From a virus (Duplodnaviria; Heunggongvirae; Uroviricota; Caudoviricetes): DNA of 64,000 nucleotides. The stretch lies in the IMG/VR virus record IMGVR_UViG_3300025769_000070; one strand, 5' to 3'. Made by a program: the position numbers and the translations under genes. The notes under the pieces were generated by a model. It was not told the origin of the DNA and made no database searches. It saw only the letters and a list, made by a program, of their open reading frames with translations. This document shows positions 39,479 to 64,000 of this stretch, piece by piece (position 1 is the stretch's first letter; every line of letters starts with the position of its first letter).

Positions 39479-39482
39479 CCGC

Positions 39483-42205: not shown

Positions 42206-42233
42206 TTGCAATGGTCTGCCGATATGATATACT
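42206..42233 (+). promoter_or_regulatory. sigma70-type promoter (TTGCAA-16-TATACT), TTGCAATGG family
   Basis: Shares the TTGCAATGG...GTGACATGAG architecture with the promoters at 44071 and 45353. Confidence 0.45.
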
Positions 42234-42296
42234 AGTGACATGAGACGCGGGGGCAATCAGCCCAACACGGGGTTTTTTCTTCAAAGGAGAATTGTG

Positions 42297-43193: not shown

Positions 43194-43205
43194 AATTGGT
43201 AAGGT

Positions 43206-43240
43206 GGGGGGATGGCGGAAACCCGCCATTCCCCTATCCC
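43206..43240 (+). repeat. palindromic direct repeat flanking HNH gene (left copy)
   Basis: GGGGGATGGCGGAAACCCGCCATTCCCCTAT. Confidence 0.6.
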
Positions 43241-43854: not shown

Positions 43855-43922
43855 TGTAAATACCCTTGAAAAGAAAATTTGTTCTCAAGGTTATATACAC
43901 CCTTTTCGATTCAAAAAGGACA

Positions 43923-43957
43923 AACGGGGATGGCGGATTTACGCCATTCCCCTATGC
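43923..43957 (+). repeat. palindromic direct repeat flanking HNH gene (right copy)
   Basis: GGGGATGGCGGATTTACGCCATTCCCCTAT. Confidence 0.6.
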
Positions 43958-44070
43958 GAGAGTATATCCTCCATCTTATAAATGGTAGAAAGATTAATTG
44001 GTTCATGTGCGTTCGATTCGCACCTCTCGCACTGACACTGAGTTTTTTCAAAAACTCTAAAGATAACGCT

Positions 44071-44098
44071 TGCAATGGTCGATAATTACAGTACAATG
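44071..44098 (+). promoter_or_regulatory. sigma70-type promoter (TTGCAA-16-TACAAT), TTGCAATGG family
   Basis: TTGCAATGGTCGATAATTACAGTACAATGGTGACATAAAG, near-identical to the promoter at 45353. Confidence 0.5.
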
Positions 44099-44170
44099 GT
44101 GACATAAAGCGATCAGCTTGACCTACAACCAGGCCATCATCTTGGCCGAATCAATCCTGGAGGCTTTGAA

Positions 44171-44458
44171 ATGAAAGACATTATGGTTGGCGGATTCTTT
44201 GTTCTTTTTATTATTGGGGCATTGTTTATTGGTGCAACTAATGTACCACTAGAGCAAGAACCACCAACAGAGCTTCAACAACTACAAACTGAGGTGCGGT
44301 CTTTACGCAACGACCTGAACCAGTTAATCCTTGCATTGCCCGAAGATCCGACCATCATTGTAGATGGTCAAGTGGTAGACGAACATTTTGACTGGAACGT
44401 GTTTCATAACGTGCCGGGGAAAACAGATGATCAAAAAACCAGCGTTTTACCAGATTGA
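44171..44458 (+). CDS. small membrane-anchored protein
   Basis: N-terminal TM helix GGFFVLFIIGALFIGA; Q/L-rich. Confidence 0.45.
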   Translation: MKDIMVGGFFVLFIIGALFIGATNVPLEQEPPTELQQLQTEVRSLRNDLNQLILALPEDPTIIVDGQVVDEHFDWNVFHNVPGKTDDQKTSVLPD

Positions 44459-44837
44459 CCAGTGGAACATGCTTTCACTACTGGAACCGTTTCAAAAGGT
44501 GGACGTATACCGGAACTTGACTTCTGGTCTGTGGAGTGTCAGGCAGAATGGGATTGTTATACTACACGCTGAGTGTATAGCAATTTACAACCCCGAATTT
44601 ATCGTCAGTCAAAAGGGAAGGGCGAGGGTAATTCGGGAACAAAAGAAATACATCCATGCTTATGTTCGGGGCTTTCCTACATTTTTATCTGGGAAAAGGA
44701 CAGGGCCAGTTAATCCAACGGTTTTGACTTATAATCCCTACATTCACGAGAGTTTTGTGGACGAACGGGGGAATCCGGTATATAATGCTGGCATGTGTGT
44801 GTTGCGTCCGGATCATAAAGTTGAGGTAGTCAGATGA
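44427..44837 (+). CDS. hypothetical protein
   Basis: ORF 44388-44837; likely start MIKKPAFYQ with a GGGGAAAACAG SD. Confidence 0.4.
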   Translation: MIKKPAFYQIDQWNMLSLLEPFQKVDVYRNLTSGLWSVRQNGIVILHAECIAIYNPEFIVSQKGRARVIREQKKYIHAYVRGFPTFLSGKRTGPVNPTVLTYNPYIHESFVDERGNPVYNAGMCVLRPDHKVEVVR

Positions 44838-45003
44838 ATGAATATTGGGTAATCATGAAGGCGGCAGGTATTCAACCCTCTTACGTGTATGGTCCATTCA
44901 CATATCAAGAGGCCAGAAAAGAGTATGACCGGCGAACTGATCTGTACGAACAAAACAACCGGGAATTCACAATTCGATTGACAAAGACCGAAATTCTGGC
45001 GTA
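44836..45003 (+). CDS. hypothetical mini-protein (55 aa)
   Basis: ATGA start/stop overlap with the upstream gene. Reads MNEYWVIMKAAGIQPSYVYGPFTYQEARKEY.... Confidence 0.3.
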
Positions 45004-45266
45004 AGCCAGTTGGTATGAGAAAGCTCCTCATACTGTAAAGTGGTAAACGGTGAAGCACGGTCCACTATAATAAAACGGGGTTTCACCATACAATATGGAG
45101 TAGGGGCCACTATTGATAACTGTGGCAGTCAGACCGCAATATCTGACCGGGTTTGCTTTCTTCTTTTCTAGGGAGATTTAAGCACAGAAGAGTAATTAAC
45201 TTCTGAATACCCATGCGGGTTCAATTCCCGCCTACTCCTGCCTTATTCTTTTACTAGGCCGCTACG

Positions 45267-45288
45267 GAGCAGCCGCTGGCGGCTGCTC
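45267..45288 (+). terminator. GC-rich hairpin (GGCCGCTACGGAGCAGCCGCTGGCGGCTGCTC family)
   Basis: GAGCAGCCG-CTGG-CGGCTGCTC, a 9-bp stem. Confidence 0.35.
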
Positions 45289-45352
45289 TGATGCGTGTAT
45301 TCCAGTGAACGTATGTCTTTCTGTTCTTTTTCGGTTTTCTCAAGGTTGGTGC

Positions 45353-45380
45353 TTGCAATGGACGATAACTATAGTATAAT
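45353..45380 (+). promoter_or_regulatory. sigma70-type promoter (TTGCAA-16-TATAAT), TTGCAATGG family
   Basis: TTGCAATGGACGATAACTATAGTATAATGGTGACATAAGAG. Confidence 0.5.
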
Positions 45381-45461
45381 GGTGACATAAGAGACAACGG
45401 GAAAAAAAGCAGAATGGACATTATGACTCAGCAAGCAATTCCATTTGGGGGATGATTCGGC

Positions 45462-45758
45462 ATGAAAAAATATCAACTACGCAATCAGTTAGACTCATCC
45501 AAAACTAGGATACGTGAACTGGAAGCTCAATTAGTTCATCAGCATCATTTTGCTGATGCTAACATCGACAAATGTTCTACTGAGAAATTGTTGGGTTCTG
45601 CTGTCATCCTGGAATTAACTGCTTTAGGTGGCAGAACTATTGTAGCACCTATTGCTATAAGTGACGGGCTATCTCTAGAGACAATTGAAGCATTGAAGGC
45701 CGACATATGCCGATCCTACAAGAATCGTGTTGAGTTCAAACCAAAGGGGATGGAATGA
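45462..45758 (+). CDS. hypothetical protein
   Basis: 98-aa ORF with a GGGGGATGATTCGGC SD region. Confidence 0.45.
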   Translation: MKKYQLRNQLDSSKTRIRELEAQLVHQHHFADANIDKCSTEKLLGSAVILELTALGGRTIVAPIAISDGLSLETIEALKADICRSYKNRVEFKPKGME

Positions 45759-45988
45759 GATCGAAGCCTGTTCCTCACCACACTTTTCCCGGTGGGTATC
45801 CAATGTTCTACTACGTGAAGTCAGATGATGGTCACCTACACAGTTGCCCATCATGTGTCAATCAGAATCGTGTGGGTAGGAATGTGACGAAAGTTGAAGG
45901 TCACATTAACTATGAGGACGACAGTCTAACTTGTGATGTTTGTGAAAAGCGGATAGAATCCGCCTATGGGAGGGAGAATGAAAACTGA
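45755..45988 (+). CDS. zinc-ribbon small protein
   Basis: CPSC...CDVC cysteine pairs. ATGA overlap with the upstream gene. Confidence 0.45.
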   Translation: MRSKPVPHHTFPGGYPMFYYVKSDDGHLHSCPSCVNQNRVGRNVTKVEGHINYEDDSLTCDVCEKRIESAYGRENEN

Positions 45989-46199
45989 AGTTTGGTATCA
46001 ATGGAAAGAATTGATCGAAGGGCGATTGGTTGATGCCGAGTCTAATCCAATGCATAGCGAGACTCCTATAGGCGATTTTCTATTTGATTCACCGGAAGAT
46101 GCGAGGGATTACCTTGACGAATCCTTTGAAGACGAAGTCAAACCGGACTGGATTCTTGTTCGCACAACTTATGATCCCATAGGGGGTTACAATGGCTAA
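45978..46199 (+). CDS. hypothetical acidic protein
   Basis: ORF 45966-46199; probable start MKTEVW after a GGGAGGGAGA SD. Confidence 0.4.
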   Translation: MKTEVWYQWKELIEGRLVDAESNPMHSETPIGDFLFDSPEDARDYLDESFEDEVKPDWILVRTTYDPIGGYNG

Positions 46200-46242
46200 T
46201 AAAAAGAAAAGGCAGGTTTTTAACTAAAATCGCCAAAATACC

Positions 46243-46270
46243 TTGAAATCTCTCTGAGACATGGTACAAT
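46243..46270 (+). promoter_or_regulatory. sigma70-type promoter (TTGAAA-16-TACAAT)
   Basis: Hexamers with a 16-nt spacer. Confidence 0.4.
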
Positions 46271-46567
46271 TGACACAGCGGTGATCTAGTGATGACGATT
46301 ACAATATGATCACCAATGTTGGCTTGACCGCCAGTGTTTGACCGGCAACACAAAAAGTCCGTCTGAGATGTTTCCCAGTTCTTTAAGCTAGACGTTAAAC
46401 GATAGAATGTGGCGTAGAATGTTATAATAGTGTTCACCAGGTTCTGAATCTTTTACAACGTCAGAGAAAGATAAATGATCCGGCGTGTCAACGAAAGTTG
46501 TTAAATTGTTCCACTGCGGTGAGTTCAAACACGTAATCTATCAGTTTTGGTCGTTTACTGAGGTAAC

Positions 46568-46652
46568 AACTAAACGGCCACAGGGGATTTGGTGTATTTG
46601 GTAACACGCCGCTATTTAAGCGAGGCACATCGGTTCGATTCCGATTTTAGTT
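46568..46652 (+). other. tRNA-like element (class-II-like, non-canonical anticodon arm)
   Basis: Perfect 7-bp acceptor pairing AACTAAA/TTTAGTT. T-arm ATCGG-TTCGATT-CCGAT. D-arm GCCA...TGGT with GG. The anticodon arm has only a GTGT/ACAC stem with an 8-nt loop. Confidence 0.3.
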
Positions 46653-46673
46653 TGGAACGCCTGAAATTGAGAA

Positions 46674-46699
46674 GTGAGGTTCGAATCCTTACAATCCCA
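46674..46699 (+). other. tRNA 3'-half-like fragment (T-arm GGTTCGAATCC + acceptor-like tail)
   Basis: TGAGG-TTCGAAT-CCTTA then CAATCCCA. No matching 5' half at tRNA distance. Confidence 0.25.
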
Positions 46700-46718
46700 T
46701 TTGGTATCCTGATTTTGC

Positions 46719-46746
46719 TTGACTGTTCGTGTCAACGTGGTACAAT
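46719..46746 (+). promoter_or_regulatory. sigma70-type promoter (TTGACT-16-TACAAT)
   Basis: Upstream of the gene at 46811. Confidence 0.45.
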
Positions 46747-46810
46747 TCGCATATGAAAAACGTGCTCATCACAGCACTGATTTTGGGCTTCCTTTTGGAG
46801 TGGTTTAGAG

Positions 46811-47086
46811 ATGAAGATTAGCAGAGCAAAAGCGTTAAAACTTATTAAGGCTTCTAACGGGAAGACTTTTGGAGTTGGTTTCATTAAAAAGAACGGGGAG
46901 CAAAGGAATATGAATGCCCGTCTGGGTGTTAAAAAGGGAGTTATTGGTGTGGGGATGAAATACGATCCATCAGAACATGATTTGATCACCGCTTTCGATA
47001 TGAAGAAAGACGGTTTTCGTATGATCAACCTTAACACTCTTTTCAGACTTTCAACCAAAAAGAAAACTTACGAAATCGTAGATTAG
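46811..47086 (+). CDS. hypothetical basic protein
   Basis: 91-aa ORF with a GGAGTGG SD. Confidence 0.45.
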   Translation: MKISRAKALKLIKASNGKTFGVGFIKKNGEQRNMNARLGVKKGVIGVGMKYDPSEHDLITAFDMKKDGFRMINLNTLFRLSTKKKTYEIVD

Positions 47087-47091
47087 GGGGG

Positions 47092-47316
47092 ATGGTGGAA
47101 GAAGAACTTGAAGAAATCAGAGAAAGAATAAAAAGGCAGCACCTTAACTATCTATGGCAAGAAGATCACATGATGGAAATCATCATGCAAATTTGTCGAG
47201 AACAGGATGATGATCGAGAAGCTGTTAAAAATGTTATCAAGTCTACTATCTCTTTGGCATATTCGACAGGAGCCGCTGACGCCACTGAGATGACTATTGA
47301 ATTACTCAATAAATAG
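47092..47316 (+). CDS. hypothetical acidic protein
   Basis: 74-aa ORF with an AGGGGGG SD. Confidence 0.45.
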   Translation: MVEEELEEIRERIKRQHLNYLWQEDHMMEIIMQICREQDDDREAVKNVIKSTISLAYSTGAADATEMTIELLNK

Positions 47317-47328
47317 GATCAGATTGAA

Positions 47329-47362
47329 GCCTCAGATTGCATCAGTAATCTGGGGCTTTTTT
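47329..47362 (+). terminator. rho-independent terminator
   Basis: CAGATTGCATCAGTAATCTG hairpin followed by GGGGCTTTTTTG. Confidence 0.4.
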
Positions 47363-47381
47363 GTATTCATAGGGTGCAACA

Positions 47382-47411
47382 GAGCAGCCGCTGGCGGCTG
47401 CTCGTTTGTGT
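47382..47411 (+). terminator. GC hairpin family member with U-rich tail
   Basis: GAGCAGCCGCTGGCGGCTGCTC followed by GTTTGTGT. Confidence 0.45.
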
Positions 47412-47464
47412 ATCTGCCTATACGGGTGAATTCGGCTATTTTTCACTTTTTAGACTTAAGACTA

Positions 47465-47492
47465 TTGCAATCAACTGTCGATATATTATAAT
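47465..47492 (+). promoter_or_regulatory. sigma70-type promoter (TTGCAA-16-TATAAT)
   Basis: TTGCAATCAACTGTCGATATATTATAATAGGGACATGAAG. Confidence 0.5.
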
Positions 47493-47538
47493 AGGGACAT
47501 GAAGGGGAGAGAACGAAACACTAAACGGGGGAGAGAGA

Positions 47539-47724
47539 ATGAAGTTTAGAGTGACAATGAAGAATCCTGATTGTGTGTCGCAGGCTATCGACGACGCCAT
47601 TGCTGATGATCCTCATCAGGAAGACGATATCAGATCAGCTATCTCTAGGTGGTTCAAATACGAGGATTATTTGGAAGTAGAGATTGACACTTCTGTCGGA
47701 ACTTGCGTGGTGATCAAACCATGA
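47539..47724 (+). CDS. hypothetical small protein
   Basis: 61-aa ORF with a GGGGGAGAGAGA SD. Confidence 0.4.
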   Translation: MKFRVTMKNPDCVSQAIDDAIADDPHQEDDIRSAISRWFKYEDYLEVEIDTSVGTCVVIKP

Positions 47725-47888
47725 ACAATCAAAGAGCTATACTTGAACAGTTGCGGGATGCGTTAGCGATTGTGTCTGAAGCGTATATCGAATGTCCACA
47801 TTGTGTTTGTGGGCCGGTATTGCAAGCCAAACAGAGTCTTGAGGATGCTGTCCATAGACTAGAAAAAAACATTGAAAGTTCAAACTAG
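47703..47888 (+). CDS. hypothetical small protein (CxxC...CxC)
   Basis: 61-aa ORF overlapping the upstream gene by 22 nt. Confidence 0.4.
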   Translation: MRGDQTMNNQRAILEQLRDALAIVSEAYIECPHCVCGPVLQAKQSLEDAVHRLEKNIESSN

Positions 47889-47921
47889 TAAAAAGGAAGG
47901 CAGATTAACGCAAGAAAACAC

Positions 47922-47949
47922 TTGACACGGCCAGTAACTAAGTTATAAT
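47922..47949 (+). promoter_or_regulatory. sigma70-type promoter (TTGACA-16-TATAAT)
   Basis: Perfect consensus hexamers. Confidence 0.55.
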
Positions 47950-47978
47950 ACGGAAGTCAACTCACACGGGGGAAAACG

Positions 47979-48722
47979 ATGATTACATTTTCAGAAGCGA
48001 ACAGTAAACTCAAAAAATTGCAAGCCGTTACTGGTCGAACTGTTTTCAGCTTCGACCTATTGTCGGGGCACACTTGTCCCGGTGCGAAGGATTGTTTCAC
48101 CAAAGTTGTTTATGATTGGCTGACAGATACTTATTCGCTGTTCGATGGTCCTGATCAGGAGTTTCGTTGTTACGCTGCAAGCCAAGAGCAACAATATACA
48201 GGCGTTTACAATAAGCGTCTCGAAAACTGGACTATCCTGGAAAGAATGTCCAGTCCGAACATAATGGCAGCAGCTATTGAAGCTGCTATGCCTAGTCACG
48301 CGGCGACTATTCGGATTCATTCAGGCGGCGACTTCTTTAGTATGTCTTATTTCAAGGCATGGATACTTGTTGCCAAACGCAACCCGCTAAAAAGATTCTA
48401 TGCGTACACTAAGTTTCTGCCAGCATGGGTTAAATTTATGGGGATTATTCCCGCAAATTTAATTCTGACGGCATCGCGTGGTGGGCGTTATGATCATCTG
48501 ATCGACAAACACGGTCTGAGAGAAGCTAAGGTGATCTATGACGAGTCTGAGGCTAACGGTCTGGCGATTGATGTTGACGATTCTATTGCCGCCGATCCTG
48601 ATCGGAGAAATGAGGATTTCTGTCTGCTGATCCACGGACAAGGGCAAGCGGGTTCTGATCAGGCAAAGATTCACAGTGAACTAACACGGGCAAAACGAAA
48701 CGCCAAACTAATCTCTAACTAG
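47979..48722 (+). CDS. hypothetical protein (GHTCPGAKDC motif)
   Basis: 247-aa ORF with a GGGGGAAAACG SD. Confidence 0.5.
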   Translation: MITFSEANSKLKKLQAVTGRTVFSFDLLSGHTCPGAKDCFTKVVYDWLTDTYSLFDGPDQEFRCYAASQEQQYTGVYNKRLENWTILERMSSPNIMAAAIEAAMPSHAATIRIHSGGDFFSMSYFKAWILVAKRNPLKRFYAYTKFLPAWVKFMGIIPANLILTASRGGRYDHLIDKHGLREAKVIYDESEANGLAIDVDDSIAADPDRRNEDFCLLIHGQGQAGSDQAKIHSELTRAKRNAKLISN

Positions 48723-48735
48723 GGGGACCAAACCT

Positions 48736-49038
48736 GTGACTATTGAAGAACAAATTGCTGTAATGGACGCTTTCCGTAATGGGTTTTGTATTGATTCCCG
48801 CCTAAAATCCCCGCCGGGAGTTGTAAAGTCTTGCTGGTGCTGTAATGAGAGTCCGGGTTGGGATTGGGTTAACTATGAATATCGGGTTCGACCTGTGCCA
48901 AAAATTACTCGTCAAAATTTAATTGACGATATAATCACGGTGTGCCGCAATGCGGAGAATCGTATGTTAGCGGCGAACCACCGTCATGTTACTGGTAGCC
49001 AAGTTTTCTGGGATGAAGACGAATTCTCAGAAAACTAG
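48736..49038 (+). CDS. hypothetical Cys/Trp-containing protein
   Basis: 100-aa ORF. Confidence 0.45.
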   Translation: MTIEEQIAVMDAFRNGFCIDSRLKSPPGVVKSCWCCNESPGWDWVNYEYRVRPVPKITRQNLIDDIITVCRNAENRMLAANHRHVTGSQVFWDEDEFSEN

Positions 49039-49048
49039 AAGAAACGAC

Positions 49049-49076
49049 TTGCATTAGCTTTAGCTTATGCTATAAT
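49049..49076 (+). promoter_or_regulatory. sigma70-type promoter (TTGCAT-16-TATAAT)
   Basis: Hexamers with a 16-nt spacer. Confidence 0.45.
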
Positions 49077-49110
49077 TTGGAAAAGACCAGGCATGTGACC
49101 TGGCAACATT

Positions 49111-49464
49111 TTGACCGGGAACAAAGTTCCCCTTTTTGAAAAGAGGTTTGCTATGGAAGACACGACTTTTGTGGAAATGTGGATTGACACTCACGCTGAA
49201 GGTGGCACCATCAATGACATGGTTAAAAACTATCGTCAGGCGGTGCCGGAATGTACCGCGAGCGATGCAAGTCTGAAGACTGCACTCTCGACCCGAGCTA
49301 CTAAAATCAGGGCAGAACTGATTGCTCTGGGAAAAACTGAAGATGAAGTCACGAAACTCTTCCCAAAGTTCCCGCGAGCCACCAAAACCAAGCAGAATCT
49401 CCAGTCTGCTGTTGCCCGTATCCTTGAAATGGCAGGAGAAAAAGCTGAACCGGAAGGAGAATGA
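49111..49464 (+). CDS. hypothetical protein
   Basis: 117-aa ORF with an AAAGAGG SD. Confidence 0.45.
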   Translation: MTGNKVPLFEKRFAMEDTTFVEMWIDTHAEGGTINDMVKNYRQAVPECTASDASLKTALSTRATKIRAELIALGKTEDEVTKLFPKFPRATKTKQNLQSAVARILEMAGEKAEPEGE

Positions 49465-49556
49465 AAACACTCCTGATCATTGGATTTTGTGTAGGATTCA
49501 TGCTATCCTTCGTGTCTGATGAGTAGTTCAAGTGGGGGAGAAATCCCCCACTATTT

Positions 49557-49640
49557 GCGGGCGTGATGTAATTGGCAGCCATATTCCGCTTAAACCGGAA
49601 TGGGAACAATCCCGTGCAGGTTCGAATCCTGTCGCCCGTA
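49557..49640 (+). tRNA. tRNA-Leu(UAA), class II
   Basis: Acceptor GCGGGCG/CGCCCGT (G1-U72 wobble). 3-bp D stem ATG/CAT with GG in the loop. Anticodon stem TTCCG/CGGAA with loop CTTAAAC, giving anticodon UAA. Long variable arm GGGAACAATCCC. T-arm GCAGG-TTCGAAT-CCTGT. Discriminator A. Confidence 0.7.
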
Positions 49641-49692
49641 TTATAGTTGAAAACCTGGTAAAAAGACAAGGCCAAATAGGGGGAATCTTCTT

Positions 49693-49953
49693 ATGAGGAT
49701 TATTGAAGCCAGCTTATGTTTGAGATTTTACCGATCAAACGGCTGGACGCGAGAAGCCGTTCGGGAACTGTTATCCGATGATAAACGTCTGTCGCGAGTA
49801 TGTCCAAGGTATTTTGACGACCGTGACAGAGTTGGGGTAGAAGATGATCTGCCCCATGATGATTGTGATTACTTCGCAGTCTATGATTGTGGAGATCCAT
49901 TCTCAAAGGATGCAATCGCGAAACATGAACTGATACCGTTCATGCTGGGCTGA
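49693..49953 (+). CDS. hypothetical protein
   Basis: 86-aa ORF with an AGGGGGAATC SD. Confidence 0.4.
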   Translation: MRIIEASLCLRFYRSNGWTREAVRELLSDDKRLSRVCPRYFDDRDRVGVEDDLPHDDCDYFAVYDCGDPFSKDAIAKHELIPFMLG

Positions 49954-49969
49954 GGCTGATTCTTCCAAA

Positions 49970-50043
49970 GGCAAGAGGGGTTGTATTACCCCTTCTTGCC
50001 CGCTTCCGCAGCGTAGCTGCGGGTAATTGACCGTCTTTTTTCG
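49970..50043 (+). terminator. tandem hairpins + T-tract (end of GC-richer early module)
   Basis: GGCAAGAGGGG-ttgtatta-CCCCTTCTTGCC (11 bp), then CCGCAGC-gta-GCTGCGG, then TCTTTTTT. Confidence 0.5.
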
Positions 50044-54095: not shown

Positions 54096-54359
54096 ATGAG
54101 TAATTTTGTATTCTCTAGTATGCTACACTCGCAGTTAAACTCGCAGTTACACTGGCATTTATACTCAGAGTTAGACTCGCAGTTACACTCGCAGTTAAGC
54201 TCACAGTCACACTGGCAGTTATACTCGCAGTCACACTGGCAGTTATACTCGCAGTTAAGCTCGCAGTTACGCTCGCGGTTACACTCGAAGTTAATCTCGC
54301 AGTTAGGCTCGCAGTTATACTGGCAGTTAGACTCGCGGTTGGAGAGAGATAGTGAATAG
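54096..54359 (+). CDS. lead mini-ORF of array A (MSNFVFSSMLH + (SQLx)n ...QLERDSE), coding status uncertain
   Basis: Real ATG with an AGGTG SD and a unique N-terminus. Downstream blocks re-start at GTG inside the punctuation with a GGAGAG SD. Punctuation carries stops in two plus-strand frames. Confidence 0.3.
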   Translation: MSNFVFSSMLHSQLNSQLHWHLYSELDSQLHSQLSSQSHWQLYSQSHWQLYSQLSSQLRSRLHSKLISQLGSQLYWQLDSRLERDSE

Positions 54360-55793
54360 ATCGCAGTTACACTTGCAGTTAAACTTGCAGTTACGCTCAC
54401 AGTCAAACTATCAGTTACGCTCGCAGTTAAACTCGCAGTTACACTTGCAGTTAAACTTGCAGTTACGCTCACAGTCAAACTATCAGTTACGCTCGCAGTT
54501 AAACTCGCAGTTATACTCGCAGTTAAACTCGCAGTTATACTCGCAGCTAAACTCGCAGTTATACTGGCAGTTATACTCGCAGTTACGCTCACAGTTGGAG
54601 AAAGATAGTGAATAGATCCCAGTTACACTCGCAGTTAATCTCGAAGTTAGGCTCGCAGTTATCCGGGGTGTTATACTCGCAGTTATACTCGCAGTTACGC
54701 TCGCGGTTACACTCGAAGTTAATCTCGCAGTTAGGCTCGCAGTTATACTGGCAGTTAGACTCGCGGTTGGAGAGAGATAGTGAATAGATCGCAGTTACAC
54801 TTGCAGTTAAACTTGCAGTTACGCTCACAGTCAAACTATCAGTTACGCTCGCAGTTAAACTCGCAGTTACACTTGCAGTTACACTTGGAGTTACACTGGC
54901 AGTTAGACTCGCAGTTATACTCGCAGTTATACTTGCAGTCAAACTTACAGTTACGCTTGCAGTTAGACTCGCAGTTACGCTCACAGTTGGAGAGATAGTG
55001 AATAACTTACAGTTAGACTCACAGTTACGCTCGCAGTTAAACTCGCAGTTACACTTGCAGTTACACTTGGAGTTACACTGGCAGTTAGACTCGCAGTTAT
55101 ACTCGCAGTTATACTTGCAGTCAAACTTACAGTTACGCTTGCAGTTAGACTATCAGTTACACTCCCAGTTAGAGAAAGATAGTGAATCCCAGTTGGAGAG
55201 AGATAGTGAATAGCTCGCAGTTATCCGGGGTGTTATACTCGCAGTTATACTCGCAGTTACACTCGGACTTACGATCACAGTTACAATTTCGGTTAGACTC
55301 GCAGTTATACTGGCAGTCATACTCACAGTTAGAATCGCAGTTATACTCACAGTTGGAGAGAGATAGTGAATAGATCGCAGTTAATCTCGCAGTTACTCTC
55401 GCAGTTATACTGGCAGTTATGCTCGCAGTTAGGCTCGCAGTTATACTGGCAGTTAGACTCGCAGTTACGCTCGCAGTTACGCTCACAGTTAGGCTCGCAG
55501 TTATACTGGCAGTTAGTCTTGCAGTCAAGCTCGCAGTTAGACTCGCAGTTACGCTCACAGTTGGAGAGATAGTGAATAACTTACAGTTAGACTCGCAGTT
55601 ATACTCGCATTTAAGCTCGCAGTTACACTCGCAGTTACACTCGCAGTTAAACTCACAGTTACGCTCGCAGTTAGACTCTCAGTTATACTTTCAGTTATAC
55701 TCGCAGTTATACTCACATTTAGACTCTCCGTTATACTGGCAGTCATTATCGCAGTTATACTGGCAGTTGGAGAGAGATAGTGAAGTGTATTAC
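54121..55793. repeat. array A: ~125 tandem 12-bp units (consensus ACTCGCAGTTAN) in 8 blocks separated by 25-bp punctuation GTTGGAGAGAGATAGTGAATAGATC
   Basis: Read directly. Punctuation copies sit at 54341, 54594, 54766, 54986 (short variant ...GAGATAGTGAATAACTTAC), 55168/55192 (tandem), 55352, 55562 (short variant) and 55766. Higher-order 72-bp and roughly 200-bp duplications. The variable positions within the 12-mer are 1, 4, 5, 10 and 12. Confidence 0.9.
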
Positions 55794-58155: not shown

Positions 58156-58315
58156 TTTCCAGTTCAACCATCATTTATATTCGGATTTAGACTCGCAATT
58201 GTCATTGCAGTTATACCCTCATTTACAACACAAGTTATACTGGATGTTACGTTCTCAAATACGTTCGCAGTTACACTCGCAGTTAGAATCGCAGTTGGAG
58301 AAAGATAGTGAATAG
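58124..58315 (+). CDS. lead mini-ORF of array B (MNNFQFNHH + tetrapeptide repeats ...QLEKDSE), coding status uncertain
   Basis: ATG start overlapping the upstream stop. N-terminus similar to the array A lead ORF (M-x-N-F-x-F). Confidence 0.3.
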   Translation: MISSGVIVMNNFQFNHHLYSDLDSQLSLQLYPHLQHKLYWMLRSQIRSQLHSQLESQLEKDSE

Positions 58316-58545
58316 ATCGCAGTTACACTTGCAGTTATACTCGCAGTTAAACGATCATTTTTACTCGCAGTTACGCTCGCAGTTAAACTCGCAGTTATAC
58401 TTACAGTTACACTCGCAGTTACACTCGCAGTTATACTGGCGGTTACACTCCCAGTTGGAGAGAGATAGTGAATAGCTCGCAGTTACACTTGCAATTATTC
58501 TCGCAGTTAAGCTCGCGGTTATACTGGCAGTTGAACTCTCAGTGC
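58175..58545. repeat. array B: second copy of the 12-bp repeat/punctuation architecture (~30 units, 2 punctuation motifs, degenerate 5' block)
   Basis: Punctuation at 58294 (GTTGGAGAAAGATAGTGAATAGATC) and 58454 (GTTGGAGAGAGATAGTGAATAGCTC). The 12-mers are ACTCGCAGTTAN. Confidence 0.85.
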
Positions 58546-58925: not shown

Positions 58926-59101
58926 AAAAAACATCAATATTTAGTTTTTATAATGCTATAGATCTTCCTACTGAACAGAAGTGGGCGGTGTATTCCCTAC
59001 TCCGTAATAATATTGCAGGAGAACCTTTTAAAGGAATAGAGGATAGACTTGATATTCAACTAGAATCTATTTTACAAAGAAAATATAGAGATGTTAATTG
59101 A
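58916..59101 (+). CDS. hypothetical small protein
   Basis: 61-aa ORF overlapping the upstream gene by 10 nt. Confidence 0.4.
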   Translation: MGMKKTSIFSFYNAIDLPTEQKWAVYSLLRNNIAGEPFKGIEDRLDIQLESILQRKYRDVN

Positions 59102-60219
59102 GCGGGGTTAACACTAACCTGACTAATCAGGTGATTACAGGATCAGGAACTGTAGGTTCCAGCTCTGCATTGCTGGAGTTAAACACTACTGCAACAACTT
59201 CTTCTTCAGCCCAATTGACCTCTTCACGATTCCTGAAATACCGTCCCGGACAAGGAGCGTTAGGCAGGTTCACAGCTTTGTTTACGACAGGTGCTGCAAA
59301 TTCTAAACAGTACGCAGGTCTAGGCACTCCGTCTTTGGATAACGGATTCTTCTTTGGTTATGACGGTGCTACTTTTGGAATCTGCCATATCAATGATAGC
59401 AGTGAAGTCTGGGTTGCTCAATCATCCTGGAATGTAGATGTGTGTGACGGAACAGCGGGGTCTACTAACAAGAGTGGGTTCGACCTAGACCCTACCCAAG
59501 GAAACATCTACCAAATCAAATACCAATATCTTGGATTTGGCAACATTAAGTTCTATGTTGAGAACTCAGATGACGGAGAATTTATTCTTGTTCACGTTAT
59601 TAAGTATGCCAACTCAAATACAGCCACTAGTCTTTCTCAGCCATCTCTCAACCTGCTGTGGAACGTCACAAACACTACAAACAATACTGACATTGCTATC
59701 AAAGCAGGCTCAGGTGCTTTGTTCGTTGAGGGAATCAAAAAAAGACTAGGATCAAAATACAGTAGAGACAACTCAAAAGGGGCGATCACTACTGAGACTA
59801 ATATCATCTCTATCCGAAACGCTACAACATACAACGGAATAACAAATGCTGCTCCTATTGTGATAAATACTTTGTCAATAGCGTCTAACAAAAGCGGTTC
59901 CATTGCTGGGACGGCGATTGTCCGACTAAAAAAAGGCGTATCGCTTGGTGGCAGTCCCTCATTTGCAGCAAATGATGGATCGACCGCAGACAATGGAGTG
60001 ACTATTACAAGTGGACAATCAACCGTATCATACGATACGGCAGGTACGACTATTACTGGAGGCACGCAGATTTATGCAGCCTGTATCGTAGTTGGCGGTA
60101 ACGATGTGATTCCATTAGAAGGGATAGAAATAGAACCTGGCGAGACACTAACCATATCAGCACAATCAGATGATTCGTCAACGGTTCAGGTTGCGGTCGA
60201 TTGGGTGGAGGAAGTCTAA
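59098..60219 (+). CDS. beta-rich structural-like protein (G/S/T/N-rich); Met-free ORF with TTG start overlapping upstream stop (TTGA)
   Basis: 373 codons with no internal ATG. The frame opens at TTG 59098, overlapping the TGA of the upstream ORF. Composition resembles a fibre or capsid-accessory protein. Confidence 0.45.
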   Translation: MSGVNTNLTNQVITGSGTVGSSSALLELNTTATTSSSAQLTSSRFLKYRPGQGALGRFTALFTTGAANSKQYAGLGTPSLDNGFFFGYDGATFGICHINDSSEVWVAQSSWNVDVCDGTAGSTNKSGFDLDPTQGNIYQIKYQYLGFGNIKFYVENSDDGEFILVHVIKYANSNTATSLSQPSLNLLWNVTNTTNNTDIAIKAGSGALFVEGIKKRLGSKYSRDNSKGAITTETNIISIRNATTYNGITNAAPIVINTLSIASNKSGSIAGTAIVRLKKGVSLGGSPSFAANDGSTADNGVTITSGQSTVSYDTAGTTITGGTQIYAACIVVGGNDVIPLEGIEIEPGETLTISAQSDDSSTVQVAVDWVEEV

Positions 60220-60386
60220 TGTGGCCGTCATTACTGAATATTCTGGGCAAATTACCTCCTGCATCAGGTAACTCGTTTACGTCATTATCGGCTATGGGGA
60301 CTCCTGGTCGATTTCAGTCATTCTCTCCAAAAGGACAGACAGCAGAATTTCTTTCAATTAATTATTTTCTTAATTTAAGATTTGAA

Positions 60387-60872
60387 TTAGACCCTATCTT
60401 TATCAAGCTCTTTAAGAAGCGATGAACTATACTTCTTTTCCATAGGTAAAAAGACCATTTTTATCCCCAGCTTATTGCAAACTTCTTCTTCTTGTTTGTT
60501 ATAAGTCTGGGGATTTCTATCGCCACTATTAAAAAATAGGAATCTGTCTTTATTTAAAAAAGAAAATATTCCCCCAGTCCTTTCTTCTTTTATCCGCTTT
60601 ACCAAAGAATATAATGTCTTAGATACACTAGAATCTTGATCAAAAGATATAAAAGCTTCATCAACAACTTTTAAAGCCTGTACAATCCGGTGTCTATGTT
60701 CTTCGTCCATAAATACTTTTGAACCTTTAATATCTACCTGATGATCATTATTTACAATGACAATCAAATAATCACATTGAGACTTAGCTCCTTCTAAATA
60801 GTCAAGATGACCAGCATGAAGAGGGTTTGCGTACAAACTAGCTATACCATATCTATATTTCATATTATCCAA
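60387..60872 (-). CDS. HIGH-motif nucleotidyltransferase (cytidylyl/adenylyltransferase-like, sugar-phosphate activating)
   Basis: IASLYANPLHAGHLDYL matches the (T/H)xGH nucleotidyltransferase signature. Confidence 0.55.
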   Translation of the reverse strand: MDNMKYRYGIASLYANPLHAGHLDYLEGAKSQCDYLIVIVNNDHQVDIKGSKVFMDEEHRHRIVQALKVVDEAFISFDQDSSVSKTLYSLVKRIKEERTGGIFSFLNKDRFLFFNSGDRNPQTYNKQEEEVCNKLGIKMVFLPMEKKYSSSLLKELDKDRV

Positions 60873-61143
60873 TTCAAAATTATATTAAGTGTAATGAATA
60901 GATTAGTTATAATAGCTTGCAATACAAGAAAAGTTCGTATAAAAGCTATATTATCACTTTCCTTTGTAGAAATCCCAGATTTTTCCCCTATGGCTTTACA
61001 CCATAATCTCCATAGACTCATTGCATCCCCTGAATTATAGGTAAAGGATCACAATCATACAACCCAGAACAAGTAAAAGAATTCAATAGCTGGTAAAAGA
61101 ACAAGGCCAATTTAGCAAGTAGTCGCTAAACGGCCCATAATAT

Positions 61144-61494
61144 TCACTGCATTTTGTGAATACCGGAATCTCTTTCAATAGAATACGCTATGGCAGTAAT
61201 TGTCCCATCAGGTTTTGTGTCGTTCACAAGGACTCTCGGACCCGATGTCAGCCCCATGACAAGCTGATCGTAAAAGATTCCGACACTGTGTAACTGCCTC
61301 TCTGTGAGTGATCTCAGCCCCTCTGGGCGAGCGGTGGTGATGACGATGTAGTGTCCATCAGCCCGCCACTTTAACAAAGTCTCCTGTGTACCTTGTATTG
61401 GTCTTGGTTCCCCCATCATCATGCCATACAGATCATTTCCGTGATGAAGAAGTGTACCGTCAATATCTAAGAAGTATGTATTATTTGAACTCAT
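61144..61494 (-). CDS. HAD-superfamily phosphatase (GmhB/KdsC-like size)
   Basis: FLDIDGTLL motif I and IVITTARPE motif II. 116 aa. Confidence 0.65.
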   Translation of the reverse strand: MSSNNTYFLDIDGTLLHHGNDLYGMMMGEPRPIQGTQETLLKWRADGHYIVITTARPEGLRSLTERQLHSVGIFYDQLVMGLTSGPRVLVNDTKPDGTITAIAYSIERDSGIHKMQ

Positions 61495-61637
61495 TATATT
61501 CTATACTTTCTATAATGAAGAGTGCTTGTTCTATTAAGAAAATTTTATCTTCAAAAGGAGACGGGTCTTCTACTATATCAAAATAGTCTTCAATAAAAGT
61601 AAGAAGAAGTTTCTCTATTTTATTTCTTTTAATAGCA

Positions 61638-62609
61638 TTATACATATTGATTAATTATTCTAGATCCATATGGATCGACGCTAAAGTCAATAAAGTTTTT
61701 CCTGTATTTTTGTTTAAAATCGTTCTTATTTTTAGAACTATCAATTAATCCAAATATAAACCCGCTACCACCGCTACCAATTAACTTGCCCCCAATCATC
61801 CCCTCATCTTGCAGACGGTTATACATCTGGTCAATTTCATAATTACTTACAATGTTTGATATCTTTTTCTTTTCCAGCCAAGAGTTATGTAATAAACGAG
61901 CAATACAATCAATGTCAGAGTTTAAAAAATAATCATATGCTTTGTGTGCAAACTCTTTAATGCGATGCTTGGATTCAATATTATCAGAATTTTTGTGAGA
62001 CTCAGCAATATTAAATGATTTTCTTGACCTGCCCGTATAAATAAGAATTGCCCTATTAAAGAATTCCCTCTGAAACTCTTCACTAATGGGCATTGGTTTA
62101 ACTTTAAAATCATTATCTGCAATATGTATAGAGTTAAATCCTCCGTAACTAGCCCATATTTGGTCTTGTATCCCCCCAGCCTCACCTAATAGGTCTCGCT
62201 CTATATAAATAGCCTCTTTAGCAAGCCTCTTATTACTTATAGAATCTCCAGAAAGTCTATAAAATGAATTTAGTAGACCAACTATAAAAGATGAAGAAGA
62301 CCCAATGCCTGTTTGCGAGGGAAGATCTGATAGGTGAACAATCTCTACTCCTTCACGCACATTAAGGAAGTCTAAGACCCCACGAACACCATTATGTTTT
62401 ATTTCTTCGTTATTATCAACTATCTCTGTCTTAGCATAACAAATCTTAGTTTTATAATCAAGAATTCCTGGAGTCATTCTAACATTAGTATAACAATACT
62501 TGTCTATAGTAAAACCTATAAGCAATGACCCATATCGATTGTAGTAATTTTCATAATCAGTAGAACCACCAAACATAGAGATTCTAAACGGTGTTTGAGA
62601 TATAATCAT
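61638..62609 (-). CDS. GHMP-family sugar kinase (heptose-7-P/galacto-kinase-like)
   Basis: LPSQTGIGSSSSFIVGLLNSF matches the GHMP PxxSGLGSSAA motif. The C-terminal GGKLIGSGGSGF motif is also present. Confidence 0.75.
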   Translation of the reverse strand: MIISQTPFRISMFGGSTDYENYYNRYGSLLIGFTIDKYCYTNVRMTPGILDYKTKICYAKTEIVDNNEEIKHNGVRGVLDFLNVREGVEIVHLSDLPSQTGIGSSSSFIVGLLNSFYRLSGDSISNKRLAKEAIYIERDLLGEAGGIQDQIWASYGGFNSIHIADNDFKVKPMPISEEFQREFFNRAILIYTGRSRKSFNIAESHKNSDNIESKHRIKEFAHKAYDYFLNSDIDCIARLLHNSWLEKKKISNIVSNYEIDQMYNRLQDEGMIGGKLIGSGGSGFIFGLIDSSKNKNDFKQKYRKNFIDFSVDPYGSRIINQYV

Positions 62610-63120
62610 CTAGTTGTTTTCTAAAAACCGATTTTCCTCGACCAATATTAGCTTTCCAATCACTTGAGGATTCTTTATTCACATAATCTGTAACAAATTT
62701 ATAACATACAAATTTAATGTTATACTTCTTACACACAGAAGCAATAGCGAATGCTTCCATGTCTACTAAATCAGGTTCTAGATGACCATCACCCTTCACT
62801 CGTTTAAAAGAATACTCATCTAAGAACCTATCTCCTGTCGAACAGATACATCCTGTTTCGTCTGTTGTAATTATGTTCGGACTAAATTCACCGACAAGAT
62901 CTCTGTCTTGAAATATCCCGCACTTATACAAACCAGACATGGATGGTTTTAAAGCACCGCAAGTTCCGAAATTGATAATAACTTCTGGATCATAATTATC
63001 TATAACTTCCATTGCTGCTATTGCAGCATTTACTTTGCCAACACCGCTATAGTATATCCTATTTTTATATTTTGGATAATCAAATTCTTCTTCTAAGGCG
63101 GTTACTATCCTGAATTCCAT
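62584..63120 (-). CDS. MTA/SAH-nucleosidase-like (PNP/UDP phosphorylase family) protein
   Basis: GVGKVNAAIAAMEVIDNYDPEVIINFGTCGAL and DMEAFAIASVC match MTAN signature regions. Likely start MEFRIV. Confidence 0.6.
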   Translation of the reverse strand: MEFRIVTALEEEFDYPKYKNRIYYSGVGKVNAAIAAMEVIDNYDPEVIINFGTCGALKPSMSGLYKCGIFQDRDLVGEFSPNIITTDETGCICSTGDRFLDEYSFKRVKGDGHLEPDLVDMEAFAIASVCKKYNIKFVCYKFVTDYVNKESSSDWKANIGRGKSVFRKQLDDYISNTV

Positions 63121-63121
63121 T

Positions 63122-64000
63122 TTAATAATTCCTGCATCTTTCTGCATCGTTAGGAGACATTAAGTCATAGAATCTAGACATTTCGGCAATTCCGTATTCT
63201 AATGTATAGTTTGGTCTATATCCTAAATTATAAAGTTTACCACTAGACACATTATAATCACGTTTGTCAGGATCAGTCCTATCTGTAACAACAGAGTAGG
63301 TAGCACCAAGTTCTTTACAGACTAATTTGACTAATTCCATTTTAGTAGTATTTAGATTGTCATTACCTAAATTATAGACCTGTCCTTTCATATACCTTTG
63401 TTCTTCAATAGCAAAGTCAAACCCTCTTACAATATCCTTGACGTGTATATAGTTACGTCTAAATTGAGGATCAAAGACAGTAATATTTCCTTCTTCTTGT
63501 GCTACTTTTACTAAATTATTCACCAACAGATCTGTACGCGGTCTATAAGACCATCCGAATACAGTGGCTAATCTAAAACATACTGTATTTCGATATCCGC
63601 TAATAAGCGTATCTTCTGCCGCCTGTTTTGTCCTAGCATATAAAGAAAGAGGGTTTGATGGAGTTTCTTCTGTACATATTTCCTCTCCAGTAGAACCATA
63701 GCCAGAATTAGTGTTAGGGTATATAACTAACTGATTATTCAAATAAGGAATTAGTTCAGAAAACCAATCCTGATTTAAAGCTTTTGTAACGTATTGATAC
63801 TTATCGCATAGTGGTGCTCCAACTAAAGCCGCTAATGGAATAATTACATCGGATGTCTTAATATGATGTATTAAGTTATCAGACCAATTAGTAACATCTT
63901 CTATATAAAGTTTGCCACCTTTATCACAAAAAACACTACTTACTAATGTCCCCTGATCATACCATAGATTATCAAATCCTACAACTTCATTACCCATAGA
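63122..64000 (-). CDS. NAD-dependent sugar epimerase/dehydratase (extended SDR), 5' end beyond window
   Basis: Catalytic LYARTKQAAE (YxxxK). Typical epimerase C-terminal region. The ORF runs off the window edge. Confidence 0.7.
   Translation of the reverse strand, partial: SMGNEVVGFDNLWYDQGTLVSSVFCDKGGKLYIEDVTNWSDNLIHHIKTSDVIIPLAALVGAPLCDKYQYVTKALNQDWFSELIPYLNNQLVIYPNTNSGYGSTGEEICTEETPSNPLSLYARTKQAAEDTLISGYRNTVCFRLATVFGWSYRPRTDLLVNNLVKVAQEEGNITVFDPQFRRNYIHVKDIVRGFDFAIEEQRYMKGQVYNLGNDNLNTTKMELVKLVCKELGATYSVVTDRTDPDKRDYNVSSGKLYNLGYRPNYTLEYGIAEMSRFYDLMSPNDAERCRNY

Follow-up and report, generated by a model that had tools for sequence, protein, structure and literature searches.

Genes at the end of an uncultured marine phage contig appear to belong to a glycan cassette for a tailored activated heptose

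Which sugar is activated by the genes that close a 64,000-nt stretch of the tailed-phage record IMGVR_UViG_3300025769_000070 (the whole stretch is called the window below), and why is a nucleosidase encoded among them? The initial annotation read five minus-strand genes at 60387-64000 as the chemistry of a nucleoside diphosphate (NDP)-heptose or NDP-sugar route. It appears fairly likely that the five genes are the distal module of a phage glycan cassette for a tailored, probably 3-deoxy and possibly C-branched, activated heptose. The carrier is an uncultured marine tailed phage with a genome of probably about 150 kb. The cluster consists of seven minus-strand open reading frames (ORFs), five with clear domains and two small ones between them, and a GMD-family gene lies elsewhere in the window:

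60387-60872, minus strand: nucleotidyltransferase, 158-161 aa (CTP_transf_like, E 1.7e-11)
60860-61021, minus strand: 53-aa ORF, p53 (phrog_1679, E 8e-17)
61144-61494, minus strand: HAD phosphatase, 116 aa (DIDGTL motif; Hydrolase_3, E 5.5e-5)
61481-61645, minus strand: 54-aa ORF, p54 (no Pfam, NCBIfam or PHROG match)
61638-62609, minus strand: GHMP kinase (GHMP_kinases_N and GHMP_kinases_C)
62584-63147, minus strand: mini methylthioadenosine/S-adenosylhomocysteine (MTA/SAH) nucleosidase (MTAN), 178-187 aa, 187 aa in this phage (PNP_UDP_1, E 8e-18)
63122-63997, minus strand: short-chain dehydrogenase/reductase (SDR), truncated by the window end (Epimerase, E 2e-16)
33630-34718, minus strand: GMD-family gene (PF16363, 344 bits)

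All five genes of the initial annotation are present, each with a significant domain match, but they are not strictly consecutive, as the two small ORFs are interleaved and the SDR runs into the window end. Neighbouring ORFs overlap by 8-26 nt, except for a single 122-nt gap, and these overlaps argue for one translationally coupled operon. Promoter- and terminator-like sites in a scan of 59800-64000 did not exceed their frequency in shuffled sequence.

Assemblies of the same phage, found by exact-sequence look-up, continue past the window end. One contig (L002) matches window 61412-64000 with 100% identity and extends it by 359 nt, which contain the beginning of the SDR and the 3' terminus of a DegT-family gene. 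A second (L144; JGI Ga0070749_10001134) has 99.86% identity to window 60384-64000 and runs 10 kb further; the two contigs give a full SDR length of 313 aa. Outward from the window end, L144 encodes in order:

DegT-family protein, 381 aa, adjoining the SDR
B12-binding radical S-adenosylmethionine (SAM) enzyme, 507 aa, its gene about 1.6 kb past the window end
E1 beta and then E1 alpha subunits of a thiamine diphosphate (ThDP) enzyme
GDP-fucose-synthase-like SDR, split in this assembly
two GT-A paralogues
GalE-like SDR
271-aa nucleotide-sugar dehydrogenase
third GT-A paralogue
methyltransferase

The cassette as a whole spans 14 kb or more and holds 18 or more genes, and the five in the window make up its promoter-distal quarter; the initial annotation named the right genes and drew the unit too small. 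Its suggestion that glycosyltransferases be sought just beyond 64 kb was borne out by the three GT-A paralogues (c24 proteins), which have no Pfam match but match GT2-annotated clusters with an hhalign probability of 97.5%, match solved GT2 structures and carry an invariant DD motif.

The SDR had been called an epimerase/dehydratase. It is a close homologue of the C4-dehydrogenase Cj1427. The match to PDB 6VO6/6VO8 (Cj1427) covers the full length with 228 bits, compared to 72 bits for the next PDB match. An AlphaFold2 model (pLDDT 94) aligned to Cj1427 in Foldseek with E 1e-34, TM 0.90, 44% identity and rmsd 2.0, compared to 1e-22 for the next SDR class and 7e-20 for Helicobacter pylori RfaD; the link between 6VO6 and Cj1427 was taken from PDB entry titles in the Foldseek output. 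Aligned to 6VO6, the protein shares the NTNSGYG motif with Cj1427 and has the YxxxK catalytic motif. The HldD (ADP-heptose 6-epimerase) model TIGR02197 gave 53 bits against a cut-off of 274.6. Full-length homology and fold together set this SDR apart from other classes, and it is predicted to be a Cj1427-type NAD-dependent C4-dehydrogenase that would convert NDP-heptose to NDP-4-keto-heptose. In Campylobacter jejuni, Cj1427 is a heptose-specific GDP-heptose C4-dehydrogenase using tightly bound NAD recycled by alpha-ketoglutarate, and together with a pyridoxal phosphate (PLP)-dependent C3-dehydratase it yields GDP-3-deoxy-4-keto-heptose in vitro (PMC10680097).

The DegT-family gene, the first past the window end, appears to encode such a dehydratase. 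Its segment FSHYIAHILACGEGG aligns with the lysine segments FSFFGNKIITTGEGG of perosamine synthetase and FSFNGNKIITTGGGG of 7b0m, with His in the phage protein at the Lys column. The same replacement of the Schiff-base Lys occurs in 83 of 94 cassette DegT-family sequences, including this one. ColD is the best PDB match of the member in L043-type phages (182 bits), whose His aligns with ColD His188, and the ColD H188N mutant entry carries Asn at the column of the cassette His. The best NCBIfam model is RfbH. Judged by these residues, the protein is a ColD/RfbH-type 3-dehydratase and not an aminotransferase, and the adjacent SDR and DegT-family genes would match the in vitro pair of Cj1427 and C3-dehydratase. 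An analogy to septacidin, in which a heptose on an adenine N-glycoside undergoes 4'-oxidation and transamination and which could explain the nucleosidase, was dropped because SepG is a genuine aminotransferase (and SepI a GMC oxidase), whereas the DegT-family protein of the cassette is a dehydratase.

The kinase also has heptose enzymes as its nearest solved relatives. HddA (NF049969) is the best NCBIfam model with 151 bits (cut-off 600), the next family reaching 65 bits, and the top four PDB matches are all heptose-7-phosphate kinases (4n3o, 3k85, 4usm, 4usk; 106-140 bits) compared to 46 bits for mevalonate kinase. This protein (phrog_34407) is of the GHMP type and not the PfkB-family heptose-7-phosphate kinase of the ADP-L-glycero-beta-D-manno-heptose pathway. 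It is probably HddA/WcbL-like and would convert heptose-7-phosphate to heptose-1,7-bisphosphate.

Assignments of the nucleotidyltransferase and the phosphatase are weaker than those of the kinase and the SDR. The nucleotidyltransferase (PF01467, 44.8 bits; TIGR00125, 50.6 bits; phrog_7878) has RfaE domain II (TIGR02199) as its best specific model, with 48 bits against a cut-off of 181.5 and only residues 18-83 aligned. Its PDB matches (ECT 3elb, RfaE-II-like 3glv, TagD 1coz) are likewise limited to the HxGH half. It has the cytidylyltransferase fold and not the NTP_transferase fold of HddC-type guanylyltransferases, adjoins the kinase in 56 of 64 loci and may convert heptose-1-phosphate and a nucleoside triphosphate to NDP-heptose. 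In the HAD phosphatase, motif I (DxDxT) reads DIDGTL; the protein matches phrog_1238 (E 5.8e-9), weakly matches the Pnkp1 phosphatase in the PDB and has no GmhB model match. Its gene adjoins the kinase and nucleotidyltransferase genes in the closest relatives, and a role in the kinase pathway is supported by its internal deletion exactly in backbones that lack the kinase. It could be the heptose-1,7-bisphosphate 7-phosphatase (GmhB step). The family check proposed at the outset (GmhA, HddA, GmhB, HddC, RfaE) gave HddA as the best kinase model and RfaE-II as the best nucleotidyltransferase model, neither at cut-off. The NDP-heptose chemistry is largely upheld, by the four solved kinase relatives and by GmhA-like SIS genes in relatives' cassettes, and left short of any equivalog assignment. 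Of the small ORFs, p53 has a homologue (73%) far from the cassette in L005 and L007 and is retained with the nucleotidyltransferase in cassette-swapped phages, and is probably a passenger, not a pathway enzyme; p54 was found in L001, L002, L144 and L145.

We infer the substrates, step order, nucleotide and acceptor of the following route from the observed gene content, homologies, catalytic residues, synteny, co-occurrence and cassette replacement. Sedoheptulose-7-phosphate would be converted to D-glycero-D-manno-heptose-7-phosphate by the host GmhA, some relatives having a SIS isomerase of their own. The HddA-like kinase would phosphorylate C1, the small HAD phosphatase would strip the 7-phosphate, and the cytidylyltransferase-fold enzyme would turn heptose-1-phosphate into NDP-heptose. 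Oxidation at C4 by the Cj1427-like SDR would be followed by removal of the 3-hydroxyl by the ColD/RfbH-type enzyme, a PLP or pyridoxamine phosphate enzyme with His for Lys, giving NDP-3-deoxy-4-keto-heptose. The ThDP E1 alpha/beta pair would probably add a two-carbon branch, as in yersiniose- and eurekanate-type sugars; the B12-binding radical-SAM enzyme, the reductase and epimerase SDRs and the methyltransferase would tailor the keto sugar further, and the three GT-A paralogues would pass the product to its acceptor. The mini-MTAN, which would not be a sugar-pathway enzyme, would clear inhibitory 5'-deoxyadenosine and SAH.

The cassette is widespread. A kinase search returned 62 IMG/VR loci and an SDR search 52 metagenome loci, mostly marine (TARA, JGI); overall, more than 100 loci from marine viruses and metagenomes contained the cassette, as did some cellular genome assemblies. 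Clustering of flanking ORFs covered 64 loci (the 62 IMG/VR loci, L001 and L002). The kinase with the nucleotidyltransferase was found in 56 of these and the SDR in 56, followed by the DegT-family gene (48), the E1 alpha/beta pair (about 41), the B12-binding radical-SAM enzyme (39), an RmlC-like epimerase (30), the MTAN (22), the HAD phosphatase (19) and a GmhA-like SIS protein (4). Recurrent extra genes encode GT2, GT4, PAP2, Mpo1-like, DJ-1 and cupin proteins. The closest relatives keep the exact order of the window, DegT-SDR-MTAN-kinase-HAD-nucleotidyltransferase. A GmhA-like SIS gene lies inside the cassette in L015, L016, L055, L059, L076, L122 and L123, in L076 inserted between the DegT-family gene and the SDR; for the present phage, GmhA activity could come from the host.

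Among cellular assemblies, marine Alphaproteobacteria single-cell genomes encode E1 alpha, E1 beta, DegT, SDR (63% identity) and kinase and then, in the position of the phage nucleotidyltransferase, an HddC-like guanylyltransferase. Most of the cassette is present on contigs of Nitrospinota, Saccharibacteria and Parcubacteria (the latter two from the candidate phyla radiation, CPR), and Prochlorococcus has a plain kinase-SIS-nucleotidyltransferase-SDR set. Four contigs binned as Candidatus Saccharibacteria (L122-L125) hold the whole cassette with 59-71% identity to the viral versions; they could be phage contigs assigned to the wrong bin, or a genuine reservoir in cells.

The nucleosidase differs from the solved enzymes in size. 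At 187 aa it has two deletions relative to solved MTANs and is about 45 residues shorter than canonical ones, which have about 230 aa. PF01048 gave 65 bits, but the curated family scores are not reached: the PRK05634 nucleosidase model (NF004168) gave 78 bits against a cut-off of 129, and TIGR01704 54.2 against 73.8. It belongs to an abundant family of 170-190 aa; the closest relative (L065, 66% identity) is located at a contig end. E21, M130-E131 and D154 are invariant in 61 family members and align with the motifs of solved MTANs (Staphylococcus aureus MTAN); they correspond to Glu12, Met173-Glu174 and Asp197 of Escherichia coli Pfs. An AlphaFold2 model (pLDDT 86.5) retrieved only MTANs or futalosine hydrolase among its top 50 Foldseek matches (TM about 0.75). 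Because the catalytic residues are invariant and the model matches only these enzymes, the predicted protein is almost certainly an active adenosyl-nucleoside hydrolase. In the L144 assembly the MTAN gene has a 1-nt deletion at window-equivalent 63066 and the kinase gene a C>T change at window-equivalent 62315 that creates a stop at codon 99; these could be assembly errors or natural decay of the module.

Relief of radical-SAM inhibition by Pfs, which clears 5'-deoxyadenosine, is an established role of this enzyme, for example with biotin synthase. Inhibition of radical-SAM enzymes by 5'-deoxyadenosine is described in PMC8102628, and by-product clearance is therefore the simplest reading of the gene. 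After dereplication at 85% kinase identity, 11 lineages had both MTAN and radical-SAM genes, one had MTAN without radical SAM, 13 had radical SAM without MTAN and 13 had neither (Fisher one-sided p = 0.014), an association that is only indicative as the lineages are not phylogenetically independent. The best explanation of the MTAN is that it scavenges the 5'-deoxyadenosine and SAH released by the radical-SAM enzyme and methyltransferase of the cassette. It had been proposed as a possible sign of a novel branch, which we do not support, since it keeps ordinary MTAN catalytic residues, co-occurs with the radical-SAM gene and belongs to a family that also occurs outside sugar clusters. The idea that mini-MTANs are restricted to sugar cassettes was rejected, with one found beside ribonucleotide reductase genes in Kyanoviridae phage C48C1 and others in housekeeping or ordinary bacterial contexts.

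The locus is exchanged between closely related phages. The nucleotidyltransferase is 98% identical in the 151,692-bp contig Ga0634391_00103 and others (L145, L146, L147), which have 98.6% DNA identity to the window across the nucleotidyltransferase and p53 and 94% across p54. In a comparison with window 59124-61676, the kinase and everything beyond it, upstream of position 61676, prove to be replaced by an unrelated sugar cassette encoding a GNAT protein, an RmlD-like reductase, an FdtA-like isomerase, an SDR, a UDP-GlcNAc 2-epimerase, a GT2 and a GT1. The HAD gene of these contigs has a 215-nt internal deletion (window 61394 to 61179) and the nucleotidyltransferase is intact. On the other flank, two ORFs (284 and 505 aa) stand in place of the gene for a 373-aa virion protein (59098-60219). 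Because cassettes are replaced between near-identical backbones, we regard the locus as a serotype-like hypervariable island.

The product is likeliest to end up in a surface glycan, either of the host envelope or of the virion. PAP2 and Mpo1-like membrane proteins in relatives and homologous cassettes in cellular genomes favour an envelope or lipid-linked glycan; a virion acceptor is favoured only by the hypervariability and by the variable structural gene next door. The 373-aa virion protein itself is unsupported as the glycan target: sought beside the cassette in 147 loci, it was found only in the same phage (L001), and it accompanies the cassette in no other lineage.

Several findings weigh against this account of a tailored heptose and a scavenging nucleosidase. 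No gene attains the curated equivalog cut-off for HddA, GmhB, HddC or RfaE, and the nucleotidyltransferase stays intact in phages without the kinase. The RfaE-II/TagD fold is known for beta-heptose-1-phosphate, whereas HddA-type kinases yield the alpha anomer, and GDP-sugars are the substrates of all the nearest homologues of the enzymes acting downstream (Cj1427, ColD, GMD, GDP-fucose synthase). With a beta-type nucleotidyltransferase fold, an alpha-type kinase, GDP-sugar downstream enzymes and an HddC-like enzyme in a cellular cassette, nucleotide and anomer match no known scheme. The radical-SAM enzyme has HpnJ (136 bits) as its best model, not a methyltransferase. No GmhA-like gene was seen in the 14 kb of this phage's cassette (the window cluster and the 10 kb of L144), nor a flippase, polymerase or initiating phosphoglycosyltransferase, and the lack of these last three weakens the envelope reading. 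The lack of phylogenetic independence among the lineages belongs here too, as do the 13 lineages with radical SAM and no MTAN. Finally, L017, L018 and L020 carry MTAN, kinase, nucleotidyltransferase and HAD genes with no radical-SAM gene within 10 kb, which keeps a biosynthetic role of the MTAN alive at low probability.

The distant GMD-family gene raises the possibility of a hexose. The gmd reported about 27 kb from the cluster is indeed there, 26-27 kb off, isolated among nuclease genes just past the terminase. Its product scores 328 bits against TIGR01472 (cut-off 415) and 293 bits against Pseudomonas aeruginosa GMD (1rpn), and its matches to the Pfam and TIGR01472 models are each split in two, implying that there is an insertion past residue 217 or so. 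L043-type phages have a GMD-like gene (329 bits, also below the equivalog cut-off) directly beside the kinase and nucleotidyltransferase. As both fall short of the cut-off, the GMD-family protein may, from these scores, act as a 4,6-dehydratase on heptose rather than being a true GDP-mannose dehydratase. A functional connection with the cassette, for example as feeder for the 3-dehydratase, is plausible since GMD-like genes lie in the cassette in other lineages and a ColD-type dehydratase normally acts on the GMD product.

In a hexose route, GMD would make GDP-4-keto-6-deoxymannose, the ColD-type enzyme would convert it to a 3,6-dideoxy-4-keto sugar of colitose or yersiniose type, and the kinase, phosphatase and nucleotidyltransferase would activate some other sugar or polyol phosphate. 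ColD naturally acts on the product of GMD, and no solved structure matches the L043-type DegT-family member better than ColD does; the phage encodes both GMD and a GDP-fucose-synthase-like SDR, with the GMD-like gene in-cluster in other lineages. The kinase, HAD and nucleotidyltransferase scores are all far below equivalog cut-offs, and the likeness of the nucleotidyltransferase to glycerol-phosphate and ethanolamine-phosphate cytidylyltransferases is about equal to its likeness to RfaE-II. We nevertheless consider this route unlikely. The SDR beside the 3-dehydratase is a close homologue of the heptose-specific Cj1427, and a C4-dehydrogenase would be redundant if GMD supplied a 4-keto sugar; the four best solved relatives of the kinase are all heptose kinases, and GmhA-like genes occur in the cassette. 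Hexose and heptose routes could also coexist, by analogy to C. jejuni serotypes with 6-deoxy- and 6-hydroxy-heptoses (PMC10680097).

The cassette might instead make a heptose-type sugar for hypermodification of phage DNA, such as glycosylated 5-hydroxymethyl-pyrimidines that resist host nucleases. There is a precedent in a metagenomic phage cluster with a HAD/APH-like kinase, a cytidylyltransferase and a GT-B enzyme, which puts one or two heptoses on 5-hydroxymethylcytosine (5hmC) in E. coli (bioRxiv 10.1101/2023.12.21.572611). Many relatives' cassettes adjoin genes of nucleotide metabolism and replication, with dUTPase-, dCMP-deaminase- and single-stranded-DNA-binding-protein-like ORFs (recognised by eye) and a Pfam-confirmed DNA polymerase III alpha fragment, accompanied by a conserved GT4 (GT-B) gene; the hypervariability also fits an arms race with restriction systems. 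However, in the scanned window and L144 ORFs (all of at least 140 aa outside the structural block) there was no TET/5mYOX, C5-methyltransferase, thymidylate-synthase-like or dCMP/dUMP hydroxymethylase, or T4-type DNA glycosyltransferase. This phage has GT-A paralogues and not the GT-B type of the precedent, the PAP2 and Mpo1-like proteins of related cassettes suggest lipid or envelope chemistry, and homologous cassettes occur in cellular genomes, where DNA glycosylation is unexpected. DNA as the target is a minor possibility beside a surface glycan.

A biosynthetic MTAN, as in the novel branch first proposed, seems very unlikely. The enzyme would convert 5'-deoxyadenosine or MTA to 5-deoxyribose or 5-methylthioribose, the ThDP E1 would add two carbons, and the resulting deoxy-heptulose would be isomerised, 1-phosphorylated and nucleotide-activated. 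In cyanobacteria the product of such salvage is 7-deoxysedoheptulose, formed via 5-deoxyribose and transketolase. Cyanobacterial salvage of 5-deoxyadenosine into a bioactive molecule is reported in PMC8102628. The placement of the gene between SDR and kinase is kept in the closest relatives, and the L017-type phages hold MTAN, kinase, nucleotidyltransferase and HAD genes together with no nearby radical-SAM gene. Other PNP_UDP_1 nucleosidases, HpnG and MqnB, are pathway enzymes that follow radical-SAM steps, and the cassette radical-SAM enzyme is most like HpnJ. On the other hand, the nucleosidase is present in only about one third of cassettes with otherwise orthologous kinase, nucleotidyltransferase and SDR, so the core pathway can do without it. 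Members of the mini-MTAN family also stand by themselves, next to ribonucleotide reductase genes in the Kyanoviridae phage and in bacterial housekeeping contexts. A bisphosphate phosphatase would be pointless for a 7-deoxy sugar, and the L017-type phages lack the E1 alpha/beta pair that this route requires. That the phage would build an unprecedented NDP-deoxyheptose from radical-SAM waste by way of the MTAN, and display it through the hypervariable glycan island, is a slimmer prospect still.

A mere boost of host ADP-L-glycero-beta-D-manno-heptose for the lipopolysaccharide (LPS) inner core is extremely improbable: RfaE domain II is the best specific model of the nucleotidyltransferase, its PHROG label is 'bifunctional heptose 7-phosphate kinase/heptose 1-phosphate adenyltransferase' and JGI names some homologues likewise, but the kinase is GHMP and not PfkB, the SDR is Cj1427-like and not HldD, and the dehydratase, ThDP, radical-SAM and glycosyltransferase genes of the operon have no role in core heptose synthesis.

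Outside the cluster, the phage nature of the window is evident from tail-fibre proteins, a large terminase with a LAGLIDADG insert and the virion protein. The terminase gene (28633-31716, minus strand, 1027 aa) has LAGLIDADG_3 at residues 319-389, suggesting an intein or homing-endonuclease insertion. An ORF of at least 2248 aa at 1-6746 (minus strand) runs off the left window end, adjoins the structural module and may encode a giant virion or tape-measure-like protein. The region 36000-50000 has a G+C content of 0.41-0.47 compared to 0.34-0.39 elsewhere, a sign switch in GC skew, and many small plus-strand genes with few ORFs of at least 100 aa; a tRNA-Leu(TAA) lies at 49556-49641. Tandem arrays of the 12-nt unit TACACTCGCAGT (about 135 copies, 70% matches) occupy window 54124-55768, with smaller arrays 2.5 kb on at 58265-58538. 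All six frames of the arrays are open, yielding 'SQL...' and 'TAS...' repeat ORFs, and the repeat family is also present in the related contigs L145 and L147.

Phage-borne nucleotide-sugar genes are already known, and the proposed heptose cassette differs in its wide occurrence, its combination of enzymes and its exchange as a whole. No INPHARED record matched the cluster by megablast, this architecture was not seen in any cultured phage of that collection, and no description of the cassette was found in a partial search of the literature. The capsular heptose genes of C. jejuni (GmhA, HddA Cj1425, GmhB, HddC Cj1423, Cj1427, the HS:5 C3-dehydratase, C3/C5 epimerases and C4 reductases) are alike in the HddA-like kinase, the Cj1427 homologue and the adjacent DegT-family 3-dehydratase, in having RmlC-like epimerases and SDR reductases, which the cassette or related ones also encode, and in C4 oxidation followed by tailoring of an NDP-heptose. 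The phage set differs in being phage-borne, in a cytidylyltransferase-fold nucleotidyltransferase in place of HddC, in a 116-aa HAD protein in place of GmhB, and in its added ThDP E1 alpha/beta pair, B12-binding radical-SAM enzyme and mini-MTAN.

The 5hmC-heptosylating phage cluster (bioRxiv 10.1101/2023.12.21.572611) shares a phage-borne kinase, HAD and cytidylyltransferase-fold minimal route to an activated heptose. Its kinase, however, is APH-like and fused to the HAD whereas the cassette kinase is GHMP; it has no C4-dehydrogenase, 3-dehydratase, ThDP or radical-SAM genes, and it adjoins C5-methyltransferase, TET and GT-B DNA glycosyltransferase genes, none of which were found here among the scanned ORFs. 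The pathways to GDP-colitose and to CDP-3,6-dideoxyhexoses and yersiniose (GMD, ColD or E1/RfbH, ThDP branching) also use a 3-dehydratase with His for Lys on a 4-keto sugar nucleotide; the GMD of this phage and a ThDP enzyme placed for branching are further likenesses. Yersiniose and AviB1-B2 provide the analogy for ThDP branching. The cassette ThDP enzyme is a split PDH-E1-like alpha/beta pair and not YerE-like, the sugar is probably a heptose, and no E3-type reductase was seen. Compared to MtnN/Pfs, the MTAN keeps the fold and the catalytic Glu/Glu/Asp and differs in being about 45 residues shorter, below NCBIfam cut-offs and inside a phage sugar cassette. Marine cyanomyoviruses such as P-SSM2, S-SSM7 and SynMITS9220M01 have heptose-kinase-like, cytidylyltransferase-like, gmd and glycosyltransferase genes, with only 24-32% identity to the cassette kinase; P-SSM2 carries LPS gene clusters. 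The unusual points of the present cassette are a GHMP kinase with a cytidylyltransferase-fold nucleotidyltransferase amid GDP-sugar-like downstream enzymes, the ThDP and B12-radical-SAM steps, and the built-in nucleosidase.

This cassette, widespread in marine viral metagenomes, is distinctive in combining a Cj1427-type oxidase, a ColD-type 3-dehydratase, a ThDP pair and a B12-binding radical-SAM enzyme with serotype-like exchange. It offers a compact enzyme set for rare 3-deoxy or branched heptose nucleotides, with a 116-aa HAD phosphatase, a 158-aa nucleotidyltransferase and a 178-aa MTAN. The pairing of MTAN and radical-SAM enzyme, if true, would clearly exemplify a virus that brings along its own means of detoxifying the by-products of an auxiliary pathway. 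If the product does decorate virions, envelopes or DNA, the cassette would represent a major and so far uncharacterised axis of recognition or evasion between ocean phages and their hosts.

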